Positions 1,978 through 18,699 of a stretch of DNA of 21,274 bases are shown here, piece after piece. Below the pieces are notes generated by a model that was given only the letters and a program-made list of their open reading frames with translations, was not told the DNA's origin and did not search any database. Origin of the DNA: Didymodactylos carnosus (lineage: Eukaryota). A program made the translations under genes and the position numbers. The stretch is taken from positions 1 to 21,274 of the forward strand of contig CAJNOQ010003136.1 in the NCBI GenBank assembly GCA_905250885.1. Direction: 5' to 3'. Every line of letters begins with the position of its first letter. Within the stretch, counting starts at the first letter, position 1.

Positions 1978-2151
1978 ATTATCGAAGCTGAAGCTGTTCT
2001 ATTGGAGCAAAAGCGTTTCTTAGATAATAATGCGAATGATGTATCAGTTGAAATCAATGCCAAATTTTATTCACTTATTCCACACAATTCGCTGTTTGTA
2101 TTGGATTTAAATAATCGACGTGTACTACGTGAAAAAATGGATCTGTGTCAA
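1978..2151 (+). CDS. PARP4-like exon, PARP alpha-helical regulatory domain (IIEAEAVLLEQKRFLDNNANDVSVEINAKFYSLIPHNSLFVLDLNNRRVLREKMDLCQ)
   Basis: Acceptor tatttag at 1975-1977, donor GTAAAG at 2152. The FYSLIPH motif is a hallmark of the PARP helical domain (FYTLIPH in PARP1, FYRLIPH in PARP4). Phase 0 continuity with the 1688-1788 exon. Confidence 0.8.
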
Positions 2152-2317
2152 GTAAAGTTTAACTTTATTCTTTCATCTGTAAAAAGGGGGATAAAAATTT
2201 CAGATTTTCAACAATTTTTCCCTTTACAAATTTTCACTCCTTGTTCTTCTTCAGAAGAAGAATTTATAGGAAGAGTTACACAAAAACATACTTTTCTTTT
2301 TGCTTTGTTCGGAGTAG

Positions 2318-2481
2318 ATGTTGCGTGATATGTTAACTGTCAATGAAATAACAAATTGGAATGTAAAAGCCTCCACTGAAGCTAAATATCGTTCGCTGAA
2401 ATGTTATATAAATACGATGGACAAAGATTCATTGGAATTTAGAAAACTTAGTGATATGATTCATTTATCATCCACAGATTC
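2318..2481 (+). CDS. PARP4-like exon (MLRDMLTVNEITNWNVKASTEAKYRSLKCYINTMDKDSLEFRKLSDMIHLSSTD-S)
   Basis: Acceptor ggagtag at 2315-2317 after a pyrimidine tract, donor GTATGT at 2482, ends in phase 2. AKYRSLKCYI matches human PARP4 AKYRALRCKI. Confidence 0.75.
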
Positions 2482-2542
2482 GTATGTATTCTGTGTGTAA
2501 TAACAAAAACGACACAATCACGACTATGATTTTATGTTACAG

Positions 2543-2680
2543 AAATGAACAAGTAATTATTCATAATATATTCGAAGTGACTAGACAAACGGAAGTAATT
2601 AATTTTCAAACAACATTACATAATCAATGTCAACTCTTTCATGGTTCAAAATACAGCAATTTTCTTGGTATTTTATCAAG
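2543..2680 (+). CDS. PARP4-like exon, start of the ADP-ribosyltransferase fold (NEQVIIHNIFEVTRQTEVINFQTTLHNQCQLFHGSKYSNFLGILS-R)
   Basis: Acceptor ttacag at 2537-2542, donor GTAATT at 2681, phase 2 in and out. Contains the catalytic H-G-S motif (LFHGS...NFLGILS compare LLWHGSR..NFAGILSQG of PARP1). Confidence 0.85.
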
Positions 2681-3114
2681 GTAATTTACTTCAATGAATT
2701 TTTTAACGAACCTTAGGGTCATGTAAATGACCCAAAATAGGACGTGTACAATCCCCAAGTCAACACTATTGCCGTAGTCATGCCACGAGCACGCTTATCA
2801 CGACATGATGGCTATAGATTTGCTTACTCATGTGGCGATTGCTATAAAATTTTGATGTCACTTTGCGATCGCGATATATTCTTACTATTAGGGTTTTCCA
2901 TGAACATGGAAACACGCTCTCCTCTCTTAGAAACACGTTACTTATGGCAAGTAATATTAAGGTTTCAGTAGCTTGCAGACCCAGGTTGATTACAACTAAC
3001 TTAGTTCTCTTTTTAGTTCTCTTTGAAACCATGGTCTATTCTTTTGTGATGATGATAGCGAATAATTTGAGAAGAGTTCCATATGTTTACGCTGATAATT
3101 TTTTATTTTTGTAG

Positions 3115-3213
3115 AGGTTTGTTAATGCCAAAAATAATTGTTAATGAAATGGGAAATACAAGAACTGATGTCGGACATTTAGGTTATGGTTTGTACTTTT
3201 CAGATTCAGTGAG
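3115..3213 (+). CDS. PARP4-like exon, catalytic domain (R-GLLMPKIIVNEMGNTRTDVGHLGYGLYFSDSV)
   Basis: Acceptor ttttgtag at 3111-3114, donor GTAATA at 3214. GYGLYFSDS is equivalent to GKGIYFADM of PARP1 (nicotinamide-stacking Tyr). Phase 2 to phase 2. Confidence 0.85.
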
Positions 3214-3275
3214 GTAATATATTTTTATGGTAATAGCGTACTTTAATCTTATCGTTTCTCTATGTGTTGTTTTAG

Positions 3276-3459
3276 TACGTCTTTGCAGTACACAAATAAA
3301 AGTGATCAAAACAGGAAGCGTTTATTGTGTATATGTCAAGTGGCTCTTGGTGACAGTGCGAATTACTACTCATATGCATGTGATTTAACGCAAGCACCGG
3401 AAAATTATCATAGTGTTCATGGTGTTAAAATGACAAATGAAAATCATTCAGTATTTGAA
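3276..3459 (+). CDS. PARP4-like exon, catalytic domain (S-TSLQYTNKSDQNRKRLLCICQVALGDSANYYSYACDLTQAPENYHSVHGVKMTNENHSVFE)
   Basis: Acceptor ttgttttag at 3271-3275, donor GTAATT at 3460. LCICQVALGD compare LLLICDVALGK of human PARP4. YHSVHGV compare YDSVHGV. Confidence 0.85.
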
Positions 3460-3533
3460 GTAATTTTTTTGTCTTATCCTCTGATAATATATTATGTATC
3501 ATTCATTAATTCTAATTTTCTTTTCTTGTACAG

Positions 3534-3690
3534 GATAATGAGTTTGTCATTTATAATCTTGATCAACAACGTCTTCTCTATTTGGTGGAAGTTTCATGGC
3601 ATCCACATGATGTCATTTCAAATATTCCCATCACAAAATTACCAATTATATGGGATCAAATGGCAGAGCGGCAACTATCAACAATAGAAA
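3534..3690 (+). CDS. PARP4-like exon, end of catalytic domain carrying the catalytic Glu (DNEFVIYNLDQQRLLYLVEVSWHPHDVISNIPITKLPIIWDQMAERQLSTIE-)
   Basis: Acceptor cttgtacag at 3531-3533, donor GTAAAA at 3691, ends in phase 1. NEFVIYN compare NEYIVYD of PARP1 and DEFVVYK of PARP4. The H-Y-E triad is therefore complete. Confidence 0.85.
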
Positions 3691-3749
3691 GTAAAACTTT
3701 GGTTCTTACTACTGAGATCATCCTTATATTTTCAAATTATTTTTTTTAG

Positions 3750-3877
3750 TACCAGAACTAATTGAAGACGAAGTAATACAGATCGCTGAACAAGATTATG
3801 GTCTTATTACTTCTGGTCGACGTTTGCCATTGAAACAATTTCATATTCGAGCACAATTAATTGATATTACCGCCGAA
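3750..3877 (+). CDS. PARP4-like exon, start of VIT domain (PELIEDEVIQIAEQDYGLITSGRRLPLKQFHIRAQLIDITAE)
   Basis: Acceptor ttttttttag at 3747-3749, donor GTAAAT at 3878. Phase 1 in, phase 0 out. Confidence 0.8.
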
Positions 3878-3937
3878 GTAAATAGTTAATGTTTTTATAT
3901 TAAATAACGTCGGTTGTTTGAAATTCTCATATTGCAG

Positions 3938-4156
3938 GTTGTACTGTATCAATTGTTTCATAATAATAATTCGCAATCAATAGAAGCCAAATATGTTTTC
4001 CCACTTGATGAACATTCAACCGTTTGTGGTTTTGAAGCACATGTTAACAACAAGGTCATCATCGGTGTGGTTAAAGAAAAAGAGCAAGCTAAAAAAGAAT
4101 ATAGGGAGGCAATTGAAAAAGGTCACGGTGCTTATTTAATGGATCAAGAACAACCG
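3938..4156 (+). CDS. PARP4-like exon, VIT domain core (VVLYQLFHNNNSQSIEAKYVFPLDEHSTVCGFEAHVNNKVIIGVVKEKEQAKKEYREAIEKGHGAYLMDQEQP)
   Basis: Acceptor atattgcag at 3935-3937, donor GTATAT at 4157. Near-diagnostic VIT signature: human PARP4 has IEAKYIFPLDDKAAVCGFEAFINGKHIVGEIKEKEEAQQEYLEAVTQGHGAYLMSQDAP. Confidence 0.9.
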
Positions 4157-4224
4157 GTATATTCATGAAAATAAAAAATAATAAATAGAATTGAACCATC
4201 CATAATACTTTCTTTTTTATCTAG

Positions 4225-4389
4225 GAAGTATTCAGCGTGTCCGTCGGAAATTTACCACCCAATTGTGAAGTTGTTATTAAAATTACTTATGTCCAAGAAT
4301 TGCCAATTGAAAATGATGATGTGATGTTTCGCTTACCAGCAAAAGTAGCCGATTGGCAATCGAAAATGGCCATTGAACATCACGACCAA
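4225..4389 (+). CDS. PARP4-like exon, VIT domain (EVFSVSVGNLPPNCEVVIKITYVQELPIENDDVMFRLPAKVADWQSKMAIEHHDQ)
   Basis: Acceptor tttatctag at 4222-4224, donor GTGCGT at 4390. Human DVFTVSVGNLPPKAKVLIKITYITEL. Confidence 0.85.
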
Positions 4390-4704
4390 GTGCGTTTTCT
4401 CTTCATAAACGACCTAAGCAAGGGATGAAATTCAAAACCAATAAAGATAGCCACTGTTTTTGAGAGAAAGACAATTAAACTATATGTCATCAAAGCAGAA
4501 GTTCTTATAATAGTTTACCATTAAACTCATAGATATTTCACGTGCGTTTTGAGATTATCAAATGTCCTAGAAATTCGGGTTAATGTAGATCTACAGCTTT
4601 AAAACGTGCTGGAACTCTAATCTAGTTTACAGACGCTAAAAGATAAAAATGCGTAGAATTTTTGACCATTTATACGACTGGATTCATATTATTTTTTGTT
4701 TTAG

Positions 4705-5547
4705 ACTATACTACCATCAATTGGAATGACATCAACAACTGATTCAAATCAAATTCAATTTAGCTTAAAAGCCACCGTACAAATGCCATACTCAATAAAA
4801 AAACTATTTTCACCAACACATCGTCTTCGTCGAAAGGTAACCGATTGTCAAGCAATGATTGAATTAATTGATAATATTTTTGATAAAGATTTTATTTTAA
4901 CAATCACATTGCAAACAATTCATATTCCTCGTATGTTAGTTGAAACATATAAATCAGATTCAGAATCAAAAGCTTGTATGTTAACATTTTATCCTGAATT
5001 TGATTTTGAAACAACACAAGTCACAATTGAAATTATTTATTTAATCGATTCATCAAATTCGATGGATGGAAAAACGATGAAACAAGCGAAACAGTTGGCA
5101 CATCTTTTTCTGTCAAATATGATAAGTTCCACCAATAAAAATAACAACATTTTATTTAATATTGTTACATTTGGCTCAGATAATGATGAATGTTTTCCTG
5201 TGTCTGTTCCATTAATAAAAGAAAATTTAGACAAAGCAAAACATTTTGTTCTTCATTCATTGAGTCATCGTGGTAATACAGATCTGTTTTCTGTTCTTCG
5301 AAATTATTCATTATTATCTGGTAGAGGAGAACGTAATTTTATTTTATTATCCGATGGTCATCTGAATGATATGAAAGCTATTATTTTGTTGTTAAAACAG
5401 CAGCAAATGAAACATGATCGATTTTTTACATGTTCTATTAGTGAAACAGCTAATAAACATAACCTGAAACAATTAATTAGTTGTACAAGTGGTGGGGGTC
5501 AATCAACAGTATTCGATACTAACTATCGTTCGAAATGGAAAATAAAA
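4705..5547 (+). CDS. PARP4-like large exon: end of VIT plus the complete von Willebrand factor A domain with an intact MIDAS motif (IIYLIDSSNSMDGK ... NIVTFGSDND ... FILLSDGHLND)
   Basis: Acceptor ttgttttag at 4702-4704, single open frame of 281 codons. DxSxS (DSSNSM), T (VTFGS) and D (LLSDG) of MIDAS are all present. SPTHRLRRKVTDCQAMIEL compare human SDTHELKQKRTDCKAVIST. Proposed 3' donor GTAGAA at 5548 is weak but gives KWKIK/VLNILESIRQP. In-frame stop at 5560-5562 if unspliced. Confidence 0.8.
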
Positions 5548-5617
5548 GTAGAAACAGAATGAAACTTAAAAAGTTTCTTAACTTTTACAACACTTTTTCT
5601 CCTTCGTTTTGTTGTAG

Positions 5618-6580: not shown

Positions 6581-6869
6581 GAGCTGGTACCCGGCAACAC
6601 ATGACCGAGTCTAACTTAACAGAATCACACATCACGACCCTGTTTGTTCTTGATTTATCTAACAATGTACTGCTCGTCGCCGTAGTCCTTCCTTCTCATC
6701 GTGGATAAAAGGAGGAGCAGGATAGTGCTTATGTAAGCCTGTGAGATTCAGACTCAATATGTTTGACCACTGCGCAAACAGTTTACGTGTCATCATCAAA
6801 TCATTAATTTCAAAAAGACGATTTTTCTTTAAATCAACTAAGTATTGTTCTTTTCTGTCTTGTTTAAAG

Positions 6870-7068
6870 GCAACACTAAAAGCAAATGTTAATGGATGTG
6901 AATTGACAACGACTGTATTTACAAATAAAATGACTGAAACAACAGGAAAAATTCTACATTGTCTGGCAGCTCGAGCAATTATTGATGATTGGGAAAATGG
7001 ATTGGTGAATATGGACGATATAGAGAATGAAGTAAATTTTTTCTTTCCAATTAAAAATAGTAGTAAAG
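6870..7068 (+). CDS. PARP4-like exon (ATLKANVNGCELTTTVFTNKMTETTGKILHCLAARAIIDDWENGLVNMDDIENEVNFFFPIKNSSK-)
   Basis: Acceptor ttgtttaaag at 6867-6869. KILHCLAARAII matches human MIHKLAARALI. Donor chosen at 7069 (GTGCAA, phase 1) because only this phase joins the next exon. A stronger consensus donor GTAAAT at 7032 exists but is phase-incompatible. Confidence 0.6.
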
Positions 7069-8526: not shown

Positions 8527-8821
8527 CCACCAGAGATACAAATGGACAGTAAGACAATGGAAATGTATGCACGACAATTGAGAGAAGCAGCAGCCGTCCC
8601 ACTTCCTGACGAAGACGACGATCTCGAGGGTGGTATAGGCTGGGACGTGTTTACTGGTGGAATGACGCCTACATCGGTGGATCTTCTGGAAATGAACGAT
8701 GCCTGTTCCCTAAGTGATGTCGGAAACAAAAGAGACGAAAGAAAAAAAGGGAAGAAAAAAACGGAAGAAAAATATCGGGATGGTACCAGTCCCAGCAATA
8801 GAATGAACAAACTTCAGACAG
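8527..8821 (+). CDS. PARP4-like exon, acidic segment (PPEIQMDSKTMEMYARQLREAAAVPLPDEDDDLEGGIGWDVFTGGMTPTSVDLLEMNDACSLSDVGNKRDERKKGKKKTEEKYRDGTSPSNRMNKLQT-)
   Basis: Acceptor ttttttctag at 8523-8526, donor GTGTGT at 8822 (alternative GTACCA at 8783, same phase). EDDDLEGGIG...VDLLEMNDAC compare human PARP4 EDFEEDGLGV...VEKLLDLSWTESC. GC-richer than the introns. Ends in phase 1, matching the acceptor at 10750. Confidence 0.65.
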
Positions 8822-9740: not shown

Positions 9741-9866
9741 AATTATGTTTCACTTTTATGCTATTTGATTGTACTTCAACTAATATCATAATAGTAAATT
9801 ATCTTTAAAACCTATTTCGGCTGCTTATGTGCCGGTTGAATTCATACTAATTTTGAAAAAATACGA

Positions 9867-10374
9867 GTGGGTATTTTTTGAATAACTTTTGACAGAAGCA
9901 AGATAGAGAGCTGCGGTTTTCACCGTTGGAAAGAAGAGCTGAAGACGCATCGAATCATATATCATAGATTTTCTTGATTTGTTCCTTGTAAGGTTTTCAA
10001 TTGACCTTTTTAAGAACAAATATATTTGATAAGTTGTTTACATTGAATTTTCAATTATCAAGTGTAAATTCAACCCACTAATCGAAGATCTACAAAGTGC
10101 GGAAGGTTGAGATGAATAATATGCATTTTAGTAGAGCTTCTAATAGAATTTTCTAGCAAAATCTGTGAAAAAAGCTCACTTTTGTGCTTTTTCCTTTTTT
10201 CAGAAAAAAAAAACATTTTTTCGACACTTAGAAAATTGCACAAAAATACTTCAGAAATCAATATTAGAAAAGCCTATAATATATGATTCGACGCATCTAC
10301 ATTTTCTCGCTCCAACGGTGAACACCGCAGCTCTCTATCTTGTTTCTATGAAAAGTTATTCAAAAAATACTCAC
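9867..10374. mobile_element. Second MITE-like element (about 508 bp) with 95-120-bp terminal inverted repeats, related to the 6000-6580 element
   Basis: Left gtgggtattttttgaataacttttgacagaagcaagatagagagctgcggttttcaccgttggaaagaag...gcatcgaatcatatat is the reverse complement of right atatatgattcgacgcatc...ctccaacggtgaacaccgcagctctctatcttgtttctatgaaaagttattcaaaaaatactcac. Shares the internal core GCGGT(C/T)TTCACCGTTGGA with element 6000-6580. Confidence 0.7.
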
Positions 10375-10749
10375 TAGCATTCATGGAACCGTGACACATG
10401 CGAACAAAACAGATTTTATCAAAATTTTATTATTCTTATATTAGTTGAAGTATGATCAAATAGCATAGAAAAATAGAGCTTTTTTTTCTCTATCAGACTA
10501 CATAAAAAGAAAATTTCTTAAAGTCTACTTTGGAAGAAAAAATTGGAACTCTCACTACTTTTGGTATGCTCTTAGTACTTACCTGTTCAGCGAAAAAGTT
10601 TAAGGACAGTCAGATGTTCTCTTCAAACCGACAAGGACGGATTTACGTATAGGGGTGGATGAACTCGCACTTGAAAAACTTCGTTTATTTTCTAAAAAGA
10701 CAAGCTGTCACGCTTATATCTGTTTCTTGTTAATTTCTTCTCTAATTAG

Positions 10750-11382
10750 AGCATATAACCGCATTATCACCTGCTAGTAGCGGACCATTCTTAAACTCAG
10801 CAGAACAATCGCGTGAAGCTGATGAATCTGGAAATGGAGAAGAATTTGATTTACTTGATAGTATAGAACTATGCGTTCTCCCCACAATATCAATAACTCC
10901 ACAGCAACAAACATATTCTACATCAGTCTCTGGTTTTTCTCCTGCAACGCCATATGTATCTTCAAAAAGCGCCGCTAAAAAACAGAAAGCTGTTTTCTCG
11001 TCTACGTCAGAATTAACATCATCAACATATTTTCCAACTTCGCCAACATATTCTCCAACTTCGCCAACATATTCTCCAACTTCGCCTACTTACAGCGCAA
11101 CACAATATGAAAATTGTCCGTATACAGCCGATTGTGATCTCATGCTGAACCGGACGCCTGCTACACTAGTATTTGGTACTAATGATAGAGACAATACCAG
11201 ACCTGTTTATACTCCAAATTTCCCATCAGTACCATTGATGTCAACCACCACATCTTCACCGTTTCTATTTGGTGCATCATCCGTAGAAACAACAGCCCCA
11301 TCTTTCGGATCCGCTGCAGCGGCAGCTCCTCAGCTACAATCATTCGGTTTCTCTTCTCCTAATCAACAACAGCCGCCTCAGT
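10750..11382 (+). CDS. PARP4-like exon, low-complexity S/T/P-rich linker with three YSPTSPT heptads and FG motifs (E-HITALSPASSGPF...TYFPTSPTYSPTSPTYSPTSPTYSATQYENCPYTADCD...PFLFGASSVETTAPSFGSAAAAAPQLQSFGFSSPNQQQPPQ-)
   Basis: Acceptor tctaattag at 10747-10749, donor GTGAGT at 11383. A 211-codon open frame with no ATG until 11142 indicates an internal exon. APSFGSAAAAAPQLQSF compare human PARP4 VASFGSAAPPRQFDASQF. Phase 1 in and phase 1 out fit both neighbours. Confidence 0.65.
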
Positions 11383-12194
11383 GTGAGTACCAAAGAGAAT
11401 TCTATTTCTATTTTTTTGTAAAGCTGATAATCCCAATTTGAGTATGTATGAGTGAAAAGCTTTTACGTCGAACTATTTGAGGAATAATTTTCGGTATTTT
11501 TTTGCAATTTTATTCTTCTCTCCCGTGCGAAATTTCTGTCTCATATACCTATAAATTCAATACCGATTCTGCAAGCTCGATCTTCACAAAAACTATTCTT
11601 TTTACGGTATAGGTGTTTTTATTATTTGAACACTATGCCATGCCTTCACATATGCAAATAAAGGAAAAGAAATTCTCGAATAAAGATTACTACGATTTAT
11701 ACGAACGATGGTAAAGCATCATTTTTAAGAGCGACTTAGCTGAGTCCGAGAGGTTTGATGAGTTATTCTTGAAATACAGCAGTACCAGCAGCATAAATAT
11801 AATATATTCACCGAAATAATTTAAATTTTCTTCTTATCATCCGCTAGTCCTGGGAAAGTGCCAAAAGCGTCATTCTATCCTTAGTTTTAAAAAAGTCAAT
11901 AAAAAAGCAGTTCAAGCTAAACTGGGAAAGATTATCTTTTACTTGTCGTCCATTTGTGAGCAGTATTATTTATCGAACAAGTTTACATTCAATGAATACA
12001 TGTAAACATTAGGACAGTAGCTAGGATTTCGCTAACGAAAATATACAGTGATCGAGATATGATCGGGATTTTCCGAGAAGGGATTGTTCATAAAAAATTG
12101 AAGTCTGGAGAATTGTACATGCAAAACTGCAGTGACGCTCGGATGAACCTGAATTTATTGGTCGTTATTCTTCTTTTTGAATTTTTTTGTCCAG

Positions 12195-12535
12195 TATTTC
12201 CTGTTCAAAGTCCACAATCATTCGGCTCAACGACAACTTTATCGATGGATTATCAGCCAAAACAAATGGTAACAAAACAAAATCGTGGAGCTCAAAGACA
12301 TTCAAAGAAAATGTCCACGGTTGAAATAAACCAAGGGACTGAACAATACCAACGACAAGCAATGCCTCCAGCACCACAAATGTCAGATTTAAATAAATCA
12401 ATACAAGCAGCAGGATACTTTCCCTCCTTATTTGAAAACGAGTCATTCTATGACAAGTCGTCGGCAGCATCTACATCTTTATTGGGAAAAATAAAAAATG
12501 TTGTTACGTCAGGAATTAGCAGCCTTGGGTTTACG
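12195..12535 (+). CDS. PARP4-like exon, linker (L-FPVQSPQSFGSTTTLSMDYQPKQMVTKQNRGAQRHSKKMSTVEINQGTEQYQRQAMPPAPQMSDLNKSIQAAGYFPSLFENESFYDKSSAASTSLLGKIKNVVTSGISSLGFT)
   Basis: Acceptor ttttttgtccag at 12191-12194, donor GTAAGA at 12536 (perfect consensus). Phase 1 in matches exon 10750-11382. The frame stays open to 12733 if unspliced. Confidence 0.55.
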
Positions 12536-12559
12536 GTAAGATACAGATCTATGTTGGAG

Positions 12560-13400
12560 GAAGTAATGATGCCTGCTGAGATGAGACGAGCACGGGAAGA
12601 GGCTCATTCAAGCCCTAAGGTTTTGGTTACTGGCGGTAGGACGGAAAGCTTCACCTTTAGTGCAGAAGATACTAATATCCGTTCCGAAATACAGTGGAGT
12701 CTCATTTATTCAACAACTAACCATGTTAACTAGAGTGATGAGACGTTCAAAGACTGGTAGCCCACTGTCTAAGCTATCGGAATGACCAAATTTATACTTG
12801 AAATTCATTGAATCTACATGGTTTAGCGATCAATTCCTTGAGAGATAGATGAAACACGCCACCTACCGGCGGTGGTTCGGCTTGACTTTTCATATCATTT
12901 CATAGCAAAAAAGTATTGTCTTTTTAGTGGTAAAAACGCATGGTTTTATCTAGGCCTGCACCGGTTACCTTATCGGAACCCTCAGAGTAGTAGTTTTAAA
13001 AATCAGAGAAAACTTTAAAAAAATTTTTGTCAGGAGTCTCGATAAGTAATTTTCTCTACAAATAATAACTGAGTATGGCATTTATCTGTAGTCAAGACAA
13101 AACATGCAATTGCAACAAGGTGGCGAGGACTTCCAACGAGGACTTTCACCAAGATCAGTGAGCTCAAGAAGGGGCGGCTTTTCGGAATTAGAACGTGGGA
13201 GAGGAGCAATGTCTAATAAAGGAAAACAAGCTGCGCACGCCGCCCGGTTTACTGATGTAAGTAATATTCTATTTAACAATAGAAAAATATATTACTTAAG
13301 CCATTCGTAAATCGTTCAGTTATGCTGCGGAGCCAGTTTACAGAGAATTTAGTTGAAATAAACGCAGACAGCAGCGGCTCGGCAACGAAGTTTTGCATAC
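12560..13400 (+). pseudogene. Colinear, frame-disrupted remnants of an Hsp70 nucleotide-binding (ATPase) domain; GC-richer than the flanking sequence
   Basis: In Hsp70 order: PKVLVTGGRTESFTFSAEDTNIRSEI (about 12640-12715; compare [24 protein letters not shown]), DETRHLPAVVRLD (about 12850; weak match to NEPTAAAIAYGLD), QQGGEDFQRGL (13118-13150; compare HLGGEDFDNRL), ISELKKGRLFGIRTWERS in the +2 frame (13155-13210; compare ISENKRAVRRLRTACER), RSQFTENLVEINAD (13325-13365; compare RARFEELNADL). Spacing is roughly as in Hsp70. Stops and frame changes lie between the pieces. No GIDLGTTYS or DLGGGTFD motif found. Confidence 0.35.
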
Positions 13401-13823
13401 GGAACGAACGTTATAGTCTATGTACTCTTCATCCTAAATATCATGTCGGTTTCGTACTATTGTAGACAAGAGCAGACGAACAGGCTCGAAGTTGTCACAG
13501 TCCTGTTCCACTTCCAGATTTAGAAACAGACTCACCACCATTGCAATCAATCGTACAAAGGTCGTACGTATGAAAAGTCAAATGAAAGAAAAGAAATTGA
13601 TTGTTTTCTCTTTTAATTTAGTGAGAACGAATTGTCTTCGTTGACAGAAACCAGAAAAGCTAATAAAAGCGCCAGCAAAGGATACTTACACAAGACCGAT
13701 GCTCTAAGATCGAAAAAGAATTTACTACCACCACCACAAGAAGAAGAACAGAAAGTAGTAATAAAATATGAATAGACTGTTAGCAAACATTAAAAAAATA
13801 TTCGTTATTGTTTTCACTTTTAG

Positions 13824-14033
13824 TATCATGTTAATATTTGTGATCTATTATTGTTAGACGTTGCACCATTATCTTTGGGAATTGAGCTAGTGAGCGGTGA
13901 ATATGTAGCCGTTATCCAACGAAATACAACAATACCAACAAAAAATTGGGCTATATTTACAAATGCATTTGCTGGTCAAACAACAGCTACAGTTAAAATT
14001 TTTGAAGGTGAACATCGATTAACAAAATATAAT
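13824..14033 (+). CDS. Hsp70-family substrate-binding domain, exon 1 ([70 protein letters not shown])
   Basis: Acceptor cacttttag at 13821-13823, perfect donor GTAAGT at 14034. Canonical Hsp70 linker plus beta-sandwich motifs [16 protein letters not shown] and KRNTTIPTK. Phase 0 to phase 0. Confidence 0.8.
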
Positions 14034-14945
14034 GTAAGTTGTTTTTCAAAATTTTCTTTATCTGGAAGAGAATTAGGTAAGCTCATTTTTCTAGTTCAAA
14101 TTGGCCTAAAGCTCTTTTCAAATTAACAGACCCTTCACTCAACAGAAGACCAACATATCCAAATTTTAGCAAAAAGTGTTATTCTCTTGATCCTTTTTTT
14201 CGGTCAACAAATTTATTCGAATGTTGATCTTTTTTTTTCCATAAGAAATTATCAGAATTTTATCTCCTCCCTTTCAGCAGTTATGAACCCATAAAGCAAC
14301 CAAAGTGAGAGCAAGTGGGAGTTTCTGATGTTACAGGATTCTTTCTTCAAAGAGAACATAGTTGTGAATTATTGATGTGTGCGCCAGAACCATAACTGTG
14401 GCTGATTTTTTTGCTTAATTTTAGTATGCGCTTTACTTACAAAAACCCAAAAATACGTATCGACTTTCTTAGAAACTTGTTTTCATAAAAAAAACTGATG
14501 TTTAACGTCAGAATTCGTCTTTGTTACTCTCCATAATGAGAAAAACTTCGCTAATTGATTTTGAGGAAAGGCTGTTTAAGCCGTGAATAGGTGCAGACAA
14601 AAAATCCGTTCGGCGGCAAAGAAAGTTCGGAAGCAAAGAAATATTAACCAAGTTTTGAAGCGTATAACTTCCGATCTAAACATCCTTTCACAATTGCTGT
14701 CCGAACTCCTATTTCAAAGAGAAATGTGTGATTTGTTTTGGAAAGAGATAAAGGTATAATCTACATGTCACAGTTAAATCTCTCAAGAAAATCCTGGATT
14801 TTAACGGGAGGGGGAAGTTTACAGCAAAATAAGGCTTTTAACCGACTCTATCTGACAAAGACATTGTTAAATCTTTCTATCGTTAATGCGTCTCTTATCG
14901 ATTCTTATGACTAAATGAAAAAAACGTTTTTGTGTTTTACTGTAG

Positions 14946-15105
14946 AATTATTTGGGTGAGTTTACACTTGAAAAACTGTCCAAAAATTTTGCTTCTGAAA
15001 CATTGAACATAACTATTACTATGGATATCGATGCTAATGGAATATTAAACGTTACTGCCGAAGAACAAGCATCGCGAGTGAAAAAGTCAATTGCAATAAC
15101 AGATG
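14946..15105 (+). CDS. Hsp70-family substrate-binding domain, exon 2 ([54 protein letters not shown])
   Basis: Acceptor ttttactgtag at 14941-14945, donor GTAAAT at 15106. [37 protein letters not shown] of canonical Hsp70 aligns residue for residue. Confidence 0.85.
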
Positions 15106-15179
15106 GTAAATTGAAGACTTGTTTCAAGCGTTTTGTAGCCAATGTTAAAAAAGAAATTATCTTTTTTTTCCTCATTTAG

Positions 15180-15254
15180 ATAAAGGTCGTCTGACACGCG
15201 ATTTTATTGAGCAACATGTACGTTTTGTAGAAAGTTTACCATCTGCTGATCACG
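15180..15254 (+). CDS. Hsp70-family exon 3 (D-DKGRLTRDFIEQHVRFVESLPSADH-)
   Basis: Acceptor ctcatttag at 15176-15179, donor GTAAGA at 15255. ITxDKGRLSxEDIE is the conserved Hsp70 SBD-to-lid junction. Phase 1 to phase 1. Confidence 0.75.
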
Positions 15255-15332
15255 GTAAGAACGACATAAACTGTATATACTGAAAGTTGGTTTATAAAAC
15301 TTCTTATATAAGAGTTCTTTTCTTCTTTCTAG

Positions 15333-15732: not shown

Positions 15733-15835
15733 GATGGTTCATTTTCGTTCACCAAAGATCTGCAGGCCATATTCAATAATATTGATTTTGGTATAGTTCA
15801 ACAACATTTAACTGAACAAGGACTAAATTCATTTG
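15733..15835 (+). CDS. PARP4-like C-terminal (MVP-interaction region) exon (DGSFSFTKDLQAIFNNIDFGIVQQHLTEQGLNSF-)
   Basis: Acceptor cgttgtag at 15729-15732, donor GTAAGT at 15836. Human EDGFWKLTPELGLILNLNTNGLHSFL. Confidence 0.7.
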
Positions 15836-16647: not shown

Positions 16648-17004
16648 TTAACTTAAAGAGCGACATTACACACTATTCATTGTTGGATGCATTTTATTAA
16701 ACATGATTTTTAACTTCATTATAAAGATTTTTTTGTTATCTGTGACTTTCTTAATAAAAAAACCATACCATTACGGTTGATTCTAGGTCATCTGCTTTTC
16801 ATGGCTATGTGCAAGTCTGTAATTTACAGACTAGGCCGATTTTTGGGGGGGCGGTTTAGAGAAAAACAGCATACATATTCTGATTCCTTTTCGCATGTAG
16901 ACTCTAAATCTGATGTTTGTTTTCTGGTGGAACGTCCAGTTTTTGAAAAAGAAGCGAAAGATCGTTTTAACGTTGAAATTAGGTGTTTTTCTCCTTCTTC
17001 TTTG

Positions 17005-17030
17005 CTCTCTCACTCTCTCTCTCTCTCTTT
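17005..17030. repeat. (CT)n / (TC)n microsatellite
   Basis: ctctctcactctctctctctctctttctttcc read directly. Confidence 0.8.
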
Positions 17031-18699
17031 CTTTCCTTCTGTTCGTTTCACCATTTTCATGATGAACGGAGAGAATGAGGAAGAGAATATATATCTATAT
17101 TTTCTACAGGTATTTTCTTCAAACATTGACACAAAAACAAGTTTCGTAACTTTAAGCGAAAAAAATTGCTTTCAAGACAAAGCAAACATAAATGTCCCCA
17201 TTGCACAGCTTAAAATATGGCCCAATTTGGAAAACACTCAGCGTTTGTTCCGGCCAGGGGTGTCAGAACACGAAATCAACAACACCAAGAAATTAGTGTT
17301 GTCGATACCGGGCTCTGGATATCAGCACACACCTCTTTTCCGTACAAAACTACAGTGAGTTCAACTACTCCTGTATTTCGGTGCTAGTATAGAAATATAC
17401 TCATCACAGATTTATTAATTTTGCTATTATACTAAGCATTATCGAGTTGGTTATACTTGCATCCGGTTTGGAAGAAAACGGTATATGTATTCTGATTCAG
17501 TTTCTTACGTATACTCCGAATCCGGCGTCTGTTTTTAGGTGCAAAGTCTAGTTTTCGAGAAATAGAGGAAAAACTTGTTTTACATGTAAATTAACTCCTT
17601 TTATTGCTTTCTCTCTGTTTTTTCGTTCGGAATATATATGTTTTTCTTTTCACTTTCTCTTTTCGTATTTTATCCTGGTAAACAAACAGAAGGAGAAAAA
17701 GAATATCCATCTATAGCTTGTAACGAGCACTGCTGTTATTCAGTATACTTGTTCAAAATTAAACCGATATAAAATATCAATTTTATTGAATCCGAGAGAA
17801 AAAAGGAAGATTGATAATACGAAACGCTACAATTACTTGTATACAAACGATTTGTATGCTCTCGCGGGGTACAAAAAGTAGATTATTGACTCCTTTTTCG
17901 TAGTAGACAACGTCGTTACATAAGCAACTTGAACTTTTTTCTTCCTAAATTGATCACATTCTTTGACAAAAGGGCTTGCTGACTCTCTCTTCGAGATGTG
18001 TGAGTTGTCTTGCAAAGTGGATGTTCAATTGTTTCATCATACTGGACAGACGATTTGTTAAAGTCTTGAGAAAAAAATATCCATGTCTATGTAAATGAGA
18101 TATATACTCAAATAAAATAGAACCAAAGAGAAAAGACGCTGAGAAGGATGATTTAATGTTTACGTGGGACGCAGAAAGGATTTAGAAAATGAATTTATGT
18201 ACCATCTAAGGAAGCACATCAAGGTAAATCCCGATCAGCCGGTCGCCATTTCTCTATTCCTAGAGTATTCTCCTATTGCTTGTCCCTCTTTTTCTCTATT
18301 CCGCTACTCTTTCGATCATTTTATTTCTGCATACTCATATTTTATGCGCAAAGAATATCTTTTCTTTCGAAACAATAAATGCGAAAAGACAAGTTTTATA
18401 TTTTATCGAAAAGAACAAATTCTACCTGCTCATCGAAATGTTCGTTCATCTTATGGGCAAGATAACCCGACATTCTAATACACTAACGAAATAACTCTAA
18501 TCTTCCACCTTGAGGATCAGATAAAGAATTGAAATAAATCGCCGTAAATTGTTTCTTCCCGTGAAGAGTAATACTTGAAAAATGCACTCTTTATATGATT
18601 CAATTTACTTTGTCAGAATATTGAGTAAGTTCATCCTAGATATTATCTTTCTTATTCATAAGCTGAATGAAGATTTTGACGAAGAAATAAAATTTCTCT

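Follow-up and report, generated by a model that had tools for sequence, protein, structure and literature searches.

RNA polymerase II CTD-type heptads in the linker of a rotifer PARP4 homologue

In a 21,274-nucleotide stretch of DNA from the rotifer Didymodactylos carnosus (contig CAJNOQ010003136.1, read on the + strand and referred to hereafter as the window), a homologue of the vault protein PARP4 appears to carry, in the linker that follows its vWA domain, three consecutive heptads of the type found in the CTD (carboxy-terminal domain) of RPB1, a subunit of RNA polymerase II. The heptads, YFPTSPT-YSPTSPT-YSPTSPT, lie in an exon at 10750-11382, called the linker exon below. As judged from the sequences compared here, the motif amplified in this exon, SP[ST]-Y-x-P-T-S-P, recurs in the linkers of the PARP4 family, from Amoebozoa to Metazoa. 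Because relatives of PARP4 in other rotifers, in a sponge and a bivalve and in social amoebae have the repeat as well, it looks like a recurrent motif, probably selected for docking or phosphorylation, rather than a one-off accident.

The heptad-coding string occupies 11028-11096, and the sole open frame across the array reads ...SSTSELTSST-YFPTSPT-YSPTSPT-YSPTSPT-YSATQYE..., so that the frame given in a preliminary description of this DNA stands. The 21-nucleotide periodicity reported there was recovered by Tandem Repeats Finder as the top-scoring repeat of the window (11023-11086, period 21, 3.0 copies, 97% matches, score 121). A degenerate DNA pattern for Y-[S]-P-T-[S]-P, TAYWSNCCNACNWSNCC, searched with at most one mismatch, matched three times in the window, each time inside the array, against 0.11 matches expected by shuffling, and three or more matches were obtained in 0 of 100 shuffles. 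The isolated heptad peptide scored 23.2 bits (E 7.4e-5) against PF05001, RNA_pol_Rpb1_R, for which the Pfam gathering score is 20.3. The heptads had nevertheless been described as identical to the RPB1 consensus, YSPTSPS, which overstates the likeness: threonine stands at position 7 in all three copies and phenylalanine at position 2 in the first, and copies 2 and 3 agree with the consensus at six of seven positions.

Because the units are nearly identical in DNA, with two differences in 63 nucleotides (TTT for TCT in copy 1, and CCT ACT at the end of copy 3 where the others have CCA ACA), the triplication is young; it arose by recent replication slippage of a 21-bp unit. A degenerate fourth unit directly after the array and a possible relic ~114 bp upstream of it (Table 1), the DNA of which (AACATATTCTACA) is 92% like the start of the unit (AACATATTCTCCA; family D2 of the window repeat search), hint weakly at earlier rounds of expansion and decay. 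A minus-strand open reading frame (ORF) runs over the repeat (10745-11089, VGEVGEY...); it has neither homology nor splice support and was set aside as a consequence of the repeat lacking stops. An RNA gene was dropped as an explanation since neither an Rfam nor a tRNA scan of the window gave a match.

An exhaustive HMMER search with the vWA exon over 1.84 billion representatives provided the PARP4-family proteins in which recurrence was assessed. The post-vWA linkers of 69 representatives were compared with a null obtained by shuffling residues at each linker's own composition. The exact hexapeptide YSPTSP was present in 6 of the 69 against 0.005 expected, and this recurrence is far above chance even if it is counted as three independent lineages. 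The test is conservative, because the arrays' own residues stay in the shuffled linkers. The carriers of YSPTSPS arrays are given in Table 1. Among the rotifers, locus L006 has SPSYEPTSPAYSPTSPC at 12871, between the acidic motif and the FG-rich (phenylalanine-glycine-rich) ORF of its linker, and locus L011 has a single unamplified copy, SPSYSPTSPM, at 14169, where its FG-rich linker ORF ends. In a six-frame regular-expression scan of the window and 12 loci, heptad motifs were essentially confined to PARP4 linkers.

A lineage-specific expansion had been proposed for the array. This holds for the triplication itself, which is young, but not for the motif, given its arrays in Sycon, the dictyostelids and Sinanodonta and its presence in two other rotifer loci. 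For Dictyostelium purpureum, we rejected a chimeric gene model as the source of the heptads, since they share one genomic ORF with the PARP domain: one unbroken stretch of 1875 codons holds the PARP His motif, a 14-3-3 signature, five perfect heptads and three P-stalk-like motifs. Because the D. purpureum heptads are likewise near-identical in DNA, we conclude that the arrays turn over by slippage everywhere and that the motif persists. Vertebrate PARP4 representatives have no heptad arrays and at most isolated look-alikes (PSYAPLSPS in Clarias, PCYAPISPS in Protopterus), in line with the absence of CTD heptads that the preliminary description gave for the human protein.

A search of 5.8 billion proteins with the linker exon returned RPB1 CTD fragments (PF05001) only and no PARP4 orthologue, because the linker is too divergent for a word-indexed search, and a JGI metagenome scan with the heptad-free linker and the following exon found no relatives. 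Between rotifer loci, the linkers differ in length and cannot be aligned. In the searchable literature, no paper holds PARP4 and YSPTSPS together, or vault, PARP4 and heptad, and two evolutionary surveys of PARPs make no mention of Rpb1 or heptads. We regard the combination of PARP4 and CTD heptads as new, CTD mimicry and the accretion of modules in PARP4 linkers being already known.

By its predicted domains, the gene that holds the array has the mid-protein PARP domain, the VIT domain and the vWA domain of PARP4, the vault PARP (clade 5 PARPs), as had been proposed. Pfam scored PARP (PF00644, exon 2520-2681) at 36.6 bits, VIT at 88.3, VWA_3 at 48.4 and VWA at 41.7 bits, with PARP_reg under its cut-off at 17 bits. 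The H (LFHGS), Y (GLYFSD) and E (DNEFVIY) motifs of PARP are present in ORFs of the window, and the PARP domain lies upstream of VIT-vWA. The best homologues of the vWA exon are bdelloid PARP4-like proteins named PARP4 or poly[ADP-ribose] polymerase, with 81% amino-acid identity to a partial D. carnosus protein and 50-60% to Rotaria proteins and metagenomic 'poly[ADP-ribose] polymerase' fragments; the exon has ~79% DNA identity to a D. carnosus contig. These values place the gene in a bdelloid rotifer and, set against the D. carnosus sequences, fit a relative or a diverged paralogue. Two D. carnosus contigs, L003 (5999 bp) and L004 (1140 bp), stop short of the linker. A WGR-like sequence starts at ~1080, and the window begins downstream of the position expected for BRCT, a domain found by Pfam in the relatives P0105, P0153, P0071 and P0135.

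The linker exon lies between the vWA region and the C-terminal domain, and its place in the PARP4 linker, put forward in the preliminary description, is borne out by two lines of evidence. Splice phases chain from the acidic exon upstream through the linker exon, the following linker exon and the Arg/Gly-rich exon to the three HSP70-like exons (Table 1). Comparison by tblastx with six other rotifer loci gave a collinear chain of conserved exons, vWA, HSP70-like module and DGSF exon, and with L006, L011, L007 and L005 the linker exon falls in this chain. The linker matches themselves are weak only; they include the heptad segment against L006 and L011. We therefore infer from splice logic and synteny that 10750-11382 belongs to the linker that joins the ITIH-like region of the PARP4 homologue to its C-terminal domain. 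A Pfam scan found no domain in the exon.

With a probability of roughly one in two, we propose that the heptads act as a multivalent CTD-mimic short linear motif for phosphorylation or docking, set in a disordered, fast-evolving PARP4 linker and expanded by slippage. The heptads would receive Ser2/Ser5-type marks from proline-directed kinases and lose them to phosphatases, and CTD readers (CID, WW/Pin1-type, SPOC-type and similar modules) would thereby be tethered to PARP4, where they might be ADP-ribosylated or held in or near the vault. Slippage would let the number of heptads drift, with one or two at the least being retained. The recurrence of the motif makes a CTD-like substrate or docking role more plausible. 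Motifs that mimic the CTD and bind a CID are an established mechanism, as the Nrd1-interacting motifs (NIMs) of Trf4 and Sen1 dock the CID of Nrd1 (PMC4186968, PMC7110113). The rotifer linker corresponds to exon 30 of human PARP4, one large exon that encodes a disordered region, is included in every expressed-sequence-tag isoform examined and has been under recurrent positive selection (PMC4038475; PMC10450202).

The main rival, which we consider possible rather than probable, is neutral low-complexity slippage. Minisatellite units would expand and decay in a disordered spacer rich in Ser, Thr, Pro and Tyr, the likeness to the CTD would be functionless, and the recurrence would reflect shared composition and slippage-prone codons. 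The very young age of three units 97% identical in DNA, the near-identity of the D. purpureum arrays and the composition of the linker exon (17% Ser, 11% Thr, 10% Pro) are consistent with this explanation, as are the unalignable, length-variable linker of the rotifer loci and the many family members without the motif. However, composition fails to predict the exact hexapeptide at anything near the frequency seen in the 69 linkers. Further to that, slippage amplifies any seed, which leaves unexplained why a CTD-consensus seed is found in sponge, bivalve, dictyostelid and rotifer lineages, and unamplified single copies exist, such as that of L011.

We think it doubtful that the linker is an integrated decoy, having repeatedly captured copies of the most conserved cellular hubs, across eukaryotes, as baits for pathogen toxins or effectors, with the rotifer heptads as CTD bait; the lured factors would then be ADP-ribosylated, trapped in the vault, or set off vault-linked immune signalling together with the TIR-like NADase of TEP1. 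The CTD, the P-stalk, 14-3-3, ubiquitin, actin, HSP70 and perhaps calmodulin, the hubs represented among the linker modules, are targets of pathogens, and we know of no pathogen factor that binds any PARP4 linker module. In its favour, linkers of various lineages carry CTD heptads, P-stalk tails, 14-3-3, ubiquitin, an HSP70 substrate-binding module, calmodulin-like EF hands and WH2-like motifs, and 14-3-3, actin or actin-binding and ubiquitin domains have been described as appendages of PARP4-like proteins (Perina et al. 2014, PMC4245714). The recurrent positive selection on the human linker exon has been interpreted as a host-pathogen interface (PMC4038475), and TEP1, the other minor vault protein, has an immune-type TIR-like NADase (bioRxiv 10.64898/2026.05.01.722283; 10.64898/2026.09.21.753143). 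The decoy is entirely inferential, however: the modules might equally recruit endogenous partners, and the calmodulin-like ORFs of locus L001 might be a nested gene.

It is very unlikely that the ORF lies outside the mature PARP4 mRNA, be it as an unspliced pseudo-exon, a nested gene (for example, for an FG-rich protein) or a mostly skipped alternative cassette: the exon is symmetric, so that skipping would preserve the frame, and public rotifer models are fragmented (Rotaria P0061 ends before the linker, P0216 and P0217 begin at the HSP70-like part), but the exon sits in a 231-codon stop-free stretch of an intron-rich window with 34% GC (chance ~3e-8 per start, calculated from base composition), its acceptor (ttctctaattAG/AG, polypyrimidine-AG, 10749) and donor (CAGT/GTGAGT, at 11383) are canonical, its phases fit both neighbouring exons, every complete rotifer locus has an equivalent FG-rich ORF on the same strand between the vWA and HSP70-like exons, and in other phyla the heptad linker is contiguous with the PARP domain, both in full-length models and in the intron-free D. 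purpureum ORF.

Several observations weigh against the CTD-mimic proposal. Most family representatives, including all vertebrates sampled, are without arrays, and the motif is missing in rotifer loci L005, L001 and L010, the linkers of L007-9 having assembly gaps. The position of the heptads relative to the FG, polyproline and WH2-like elements varies among lineages, including among dictyostelids, which would be explained equally well by motif turnover, by repeated gain or by strict ancestry. Selection on the array itself is not demonstrable with only three copies, Thr7, one Phe2 and DNA that is too alike. The enrichment was measured against shuffled linkers as the baseline, not against the proteome-wide rate of YSPTSP arrays in non-RPB1 proteins. 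Finally, splice logic and synteny are what the presence of 10750-11382 in the mRNA of this organism rests on.

The heptads provide concrete, testable candidates for partners of PARP4 (the kinases, phosphatases and readers of the CTD, or pathogen factors directed at these), and such candidates matter for a protein and an organelle of long-open function. The heptads recur beside ribosomal-stalk tails and other hub-derived modules, in a linker known mainly as disordered and positively selected. As canonical CTD heptads outside RPB1, they would moreover be a rarity, with a bearing on how results of CTD-phospho antibodies and the specificity of CTD readers are read in organisms that carry them.

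Table 1. Features of the window and heptad arrays of PARP4-family proteins (a slash in a splice site marks the exon-intron boundary)
Feature	Position or accession	Strand	Remarks
Catalytic and ITIH-like part	1978-5559	+	PARP_reg 1978-2150, PARP catalytic ~2520-2681 onward, VIT 3908-4165, vWA exon 4705-5559
Acidic exon upstream of linker exon (…DEDDDLEGGIGWDVF…KKGKKK…)	8527-8821	+	acceptor ttttttctAG; donor ACAG/GTGTGT, phase-1 end
Linker exon, 633 nt, 211 codons	10750-11382	+	phase 1 both ends; S/T/P/Q-rich; contains heptads and four FG motifs
Possible older-heptad relic YSTSVSG-FSPATP-YVSS	10914-10964	+	aromatics spaced 7 and 6 residues; by-eye reading, weak
Triple 21-bp tandem unit	11028-11090	+	YFPTSPT, YSPTSPT, YSPTSPT; RNA polymerase II CTD-type heptads, Thr7
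Degenerate fourth unit YSATQYE	11091-11111	+	in register, codons differ (TAC AGC GCA ACA...); heptad-register print-out
FG segment	11262-11360	+	FLFGASS 11262-11282, SFGSAAAAAP 11301-11330, SFGFSSP 11340-11360
Following linker exon (LFPVQSPQSFGSTTT...GISSLGFT)	12195-12535	+	acceptor tttttttgtccAG at 12194, phase-1 start; donor ACG/GTAAGA, phase-0 end
Arg/Gly-rich exon (…RRGGFSELERGRGAMSNKGKQAAHAARFTD)	13092-13256	+	phase 0 both ends; conserved in other rotifer linkers, similar segments end L005 and L007 linker ORFs
HSP70 substrate-binding-domain-like module, three exons	13824-14033, 14946-15105, 15180-15255 (span 13824-15255)	+	same gene
DGSF exon, putative start of C-terminal (MVP-interacting-type) domain	15733-15835	+	56% identical to L001 (tblastn)
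Sycon ciliatum (sponge)	XP_065198502.1		~10 heptads, YSPTSPS array, post-vWA linker
Dictyostelium purpureum	XP_003290740.1		7 heptads, YSPTSPS array, post-vWA linker
Heterostelium album	XP_020434976.1		7 heptads, YSPTSPS array, post-vWA linker
Cavenderia fasciculata	XP_004366641.1		5 or more heptads, YSPTSPS array, post-vWA linker
EukProt protein P0144			2-3 heptads, YSPTSPS array, post-vWA linker
Sinanodonta woodiana (bivalve)	KAL3858028.1		2 heptads, YSPTSPS array, post-vWA linker

The three FG motifs said to flank the array are real, although all of them lie downstream of it in the same exon and none upstream. Further FG motifs are VFG at 11172 and, in the following exon, SFG at 12221. The FG segment aligns weakly by tblastx to the FG-rich linker ORFs of L007 and L005, and, in keeping with the FG segment noted earlier for human PARP4, FG and FG-polyproline motifs recur in PARP4 linkers (the fish Gouania, for one, has six FG[SA]..PP copies). 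A nucleoporin reading of these motifs was rejected, with five FG dipeptides in the 324 residues of the two linker exons and no nucleoporin family in the Pfam scan. In the near-identical metagenomic rotifer scaffolds L007, L008 and L009, runs of N stand at 13250-13360 in the FG/polyproline linker, and the linker ORFs (13136-14340) differ in length (322, 258 and 252 residues, respectively); either the repeats are unstable here or they assemble poorly, in keeping with a variable copy number.

The acidic exon upstream occupies the site where other rotifer loci have a motif like the C-terminal tail of the ribosomal P-stalk, DDMGFGLFD, and the copy in the window has no Pfam match. The motif is copied in PARP4-family linkers. 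D. purpureum has four (PF00428, 43.7 bits) and L011 three copies at 12360-12650 (35 bits), and others are found in L007 at ~12700 (SDDDAGTDMGFGLFDDYDS), L005 at ~12700 and L006 at ~12780; the form in the window, at 8600-8650, is the degenerate DEDDDLEGGIGWDVF. An Amphiprion PARP protein and a Logan contig have the motif, too, and the searchable literature gave no paper joining PARP4 and the P-stalk. Domains are present as well: the D. purpureum PARP4-like protein has a 14-3-3 domain (P0153 1323-1545, 47.5 bits), already described by Perina et al. 2014, and a ubiquitin domain (50.2 bits) is present in the linker of the Sinanodonta PARP4-like protein (P0071 1318-1383) and in a Logan contig protein (P0101 ~1040-1120).

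Downstream of the linker exons, the spliced HSP70-like exons, with compatible phases, scored 104 bits against PF00012 (profile positions 381-516 of 599). The module is kept at the same place, between linker and DGSF exon, in L001, L005, L006, L007-9 and L011, that is, in every complete bdelloid locus, and scans of sponge, dictyostelid, bivalve and frog PARP4 proteins found no such module. In public Rotaria gene models it is a separate small protein. The Rotaria equivalent of the DGSF exon aligns to residues 1694-1735 of 1850 of a fish PARP4 (E 5e-6 in a small database), at the start of the MVP-binding region, and a PDB sequence search with the C-terminal exons of the window returned nothing useful. 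The bdelloid Adineta vaga expresses several MVP genes (PMC10809525).

In L001, four ORF pieces at 12652-13330 (+) make up a near-complete calmodulin-like protein (EF-hand_7, 105.6 bits), on the same strand and between the vWA/helical exons and the HSP70-like exon of the PARP4-like gene; these may form a nested gene or be a further integrated module. In the same locus, an ORF with a TIR_2 domain (6689-7045, +) lies ~2.5 kb upstream of the PARP catalytic exons on the same strand, as a member of the gene or a neighbour. Dictyostelid linkers have a WH2-like motif, LLxxIxxGxxLKK, after polyproline and FGxAPPPP repeats (P0153 1876-1892, P0172 1924-1935, P0178 1965-1976), to which the Pfam WH2 match is weak (12 bits), and a faint WH2-like stretch, PPAPQMSDLNKSIQAAG, is seen at 12372-12410 of the window, in the exon that follows the heptads. 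In the intron upstream of the heptad exon, like peptides in ORFs on opposite strands (…IYDSMRLQLFFPTVKTAALYLASVKSYSKNTH, 9828-10037, minus; …IYDSTHLHFLAPTVNTAALYLVSMKSYSKNTH, 10147-10374, plus) indicate an inverted duplicated element (10070-10380), possibly a transposon remnant. Near its start, the window has a 23-bp tandem repeat (572-653, 3.7 copies, score 92), and a (CT)14 microsatellite (17005-17032) lies inside a 214-codon stop-free stretch (16714-17355) just past the last recognised PARP4-like exon.

Among known systems, FG nucleoporins share with the linker the SFG/FxFG-like motifs, the S/T/A-rich spacers and the disordered segment. Unlike them, the window has only ~5 FG motifs and no domain for anchoring at the nuclear pore, and those of its relatives typically precede polyproline (FGxAPPPP), which is not a nucleoporin pattern. 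The PARP4-like proteins of Perina et al. 2014 (PMC4245714) belong to the same family and show the same accretion of hub-derived modules in the same region of the protein, whereas CTD heptads, P-stalk tails and the HSP70 module go unmentioned in that set ('heptad' and 'Rpb1' have 0 occurrences in the paper). A counterpart in position is the linker encoded by exon 30 of human and mammalian PARP4 (Daugherty et al. 2014, PMC4038475; Suskiewicz et al. 2023, PMC10450202), which likewise comes from a large exon, is disordered and fast-evolving, and lies between VIT-vWA and the MVP-interacting domain. Fish PARP4 has FG and polyproline motifs in common with the rotifer linker, but, unlike the vertebrate representatives, the rotifer gene has the heptad array and the extra HSP70 substrate-binding-domain-like module.

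With the RPB1 CTD itself (PF05001), the array shares the heptad period and the residues Y1-S2-P3-T4-S5-P6, and PARP4 relatives hold arrays that match its consensus perfectly. It differs in its host, a PARP4 homologue, in its internal position, in having three copies rather than tens, and in Thr7 and one Phe2. The surroundings of the array are PARP, VIT and vWA exons upstream and HSP70-like and DGSF exons downstream, all on the same strand, with no Rpb1 domain in the window; instead of a long array with diverged synonymous sites, there are three copies with two nucleotide differences. The heptads would thus work like a CTD without being one. This is similar to what has been described for the Nrd1-interacting motifs of yeast Trf4 and Sen1 (PMC4186968, PMC7110113), where a disordered segment of a non-polymerase protein imitates the CTD, a likeness that is drawn here from sequence. 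While these motifs are single, divergent mimics of the phosphorylated CTD, the PARP4 linker repeats the literal heptad.

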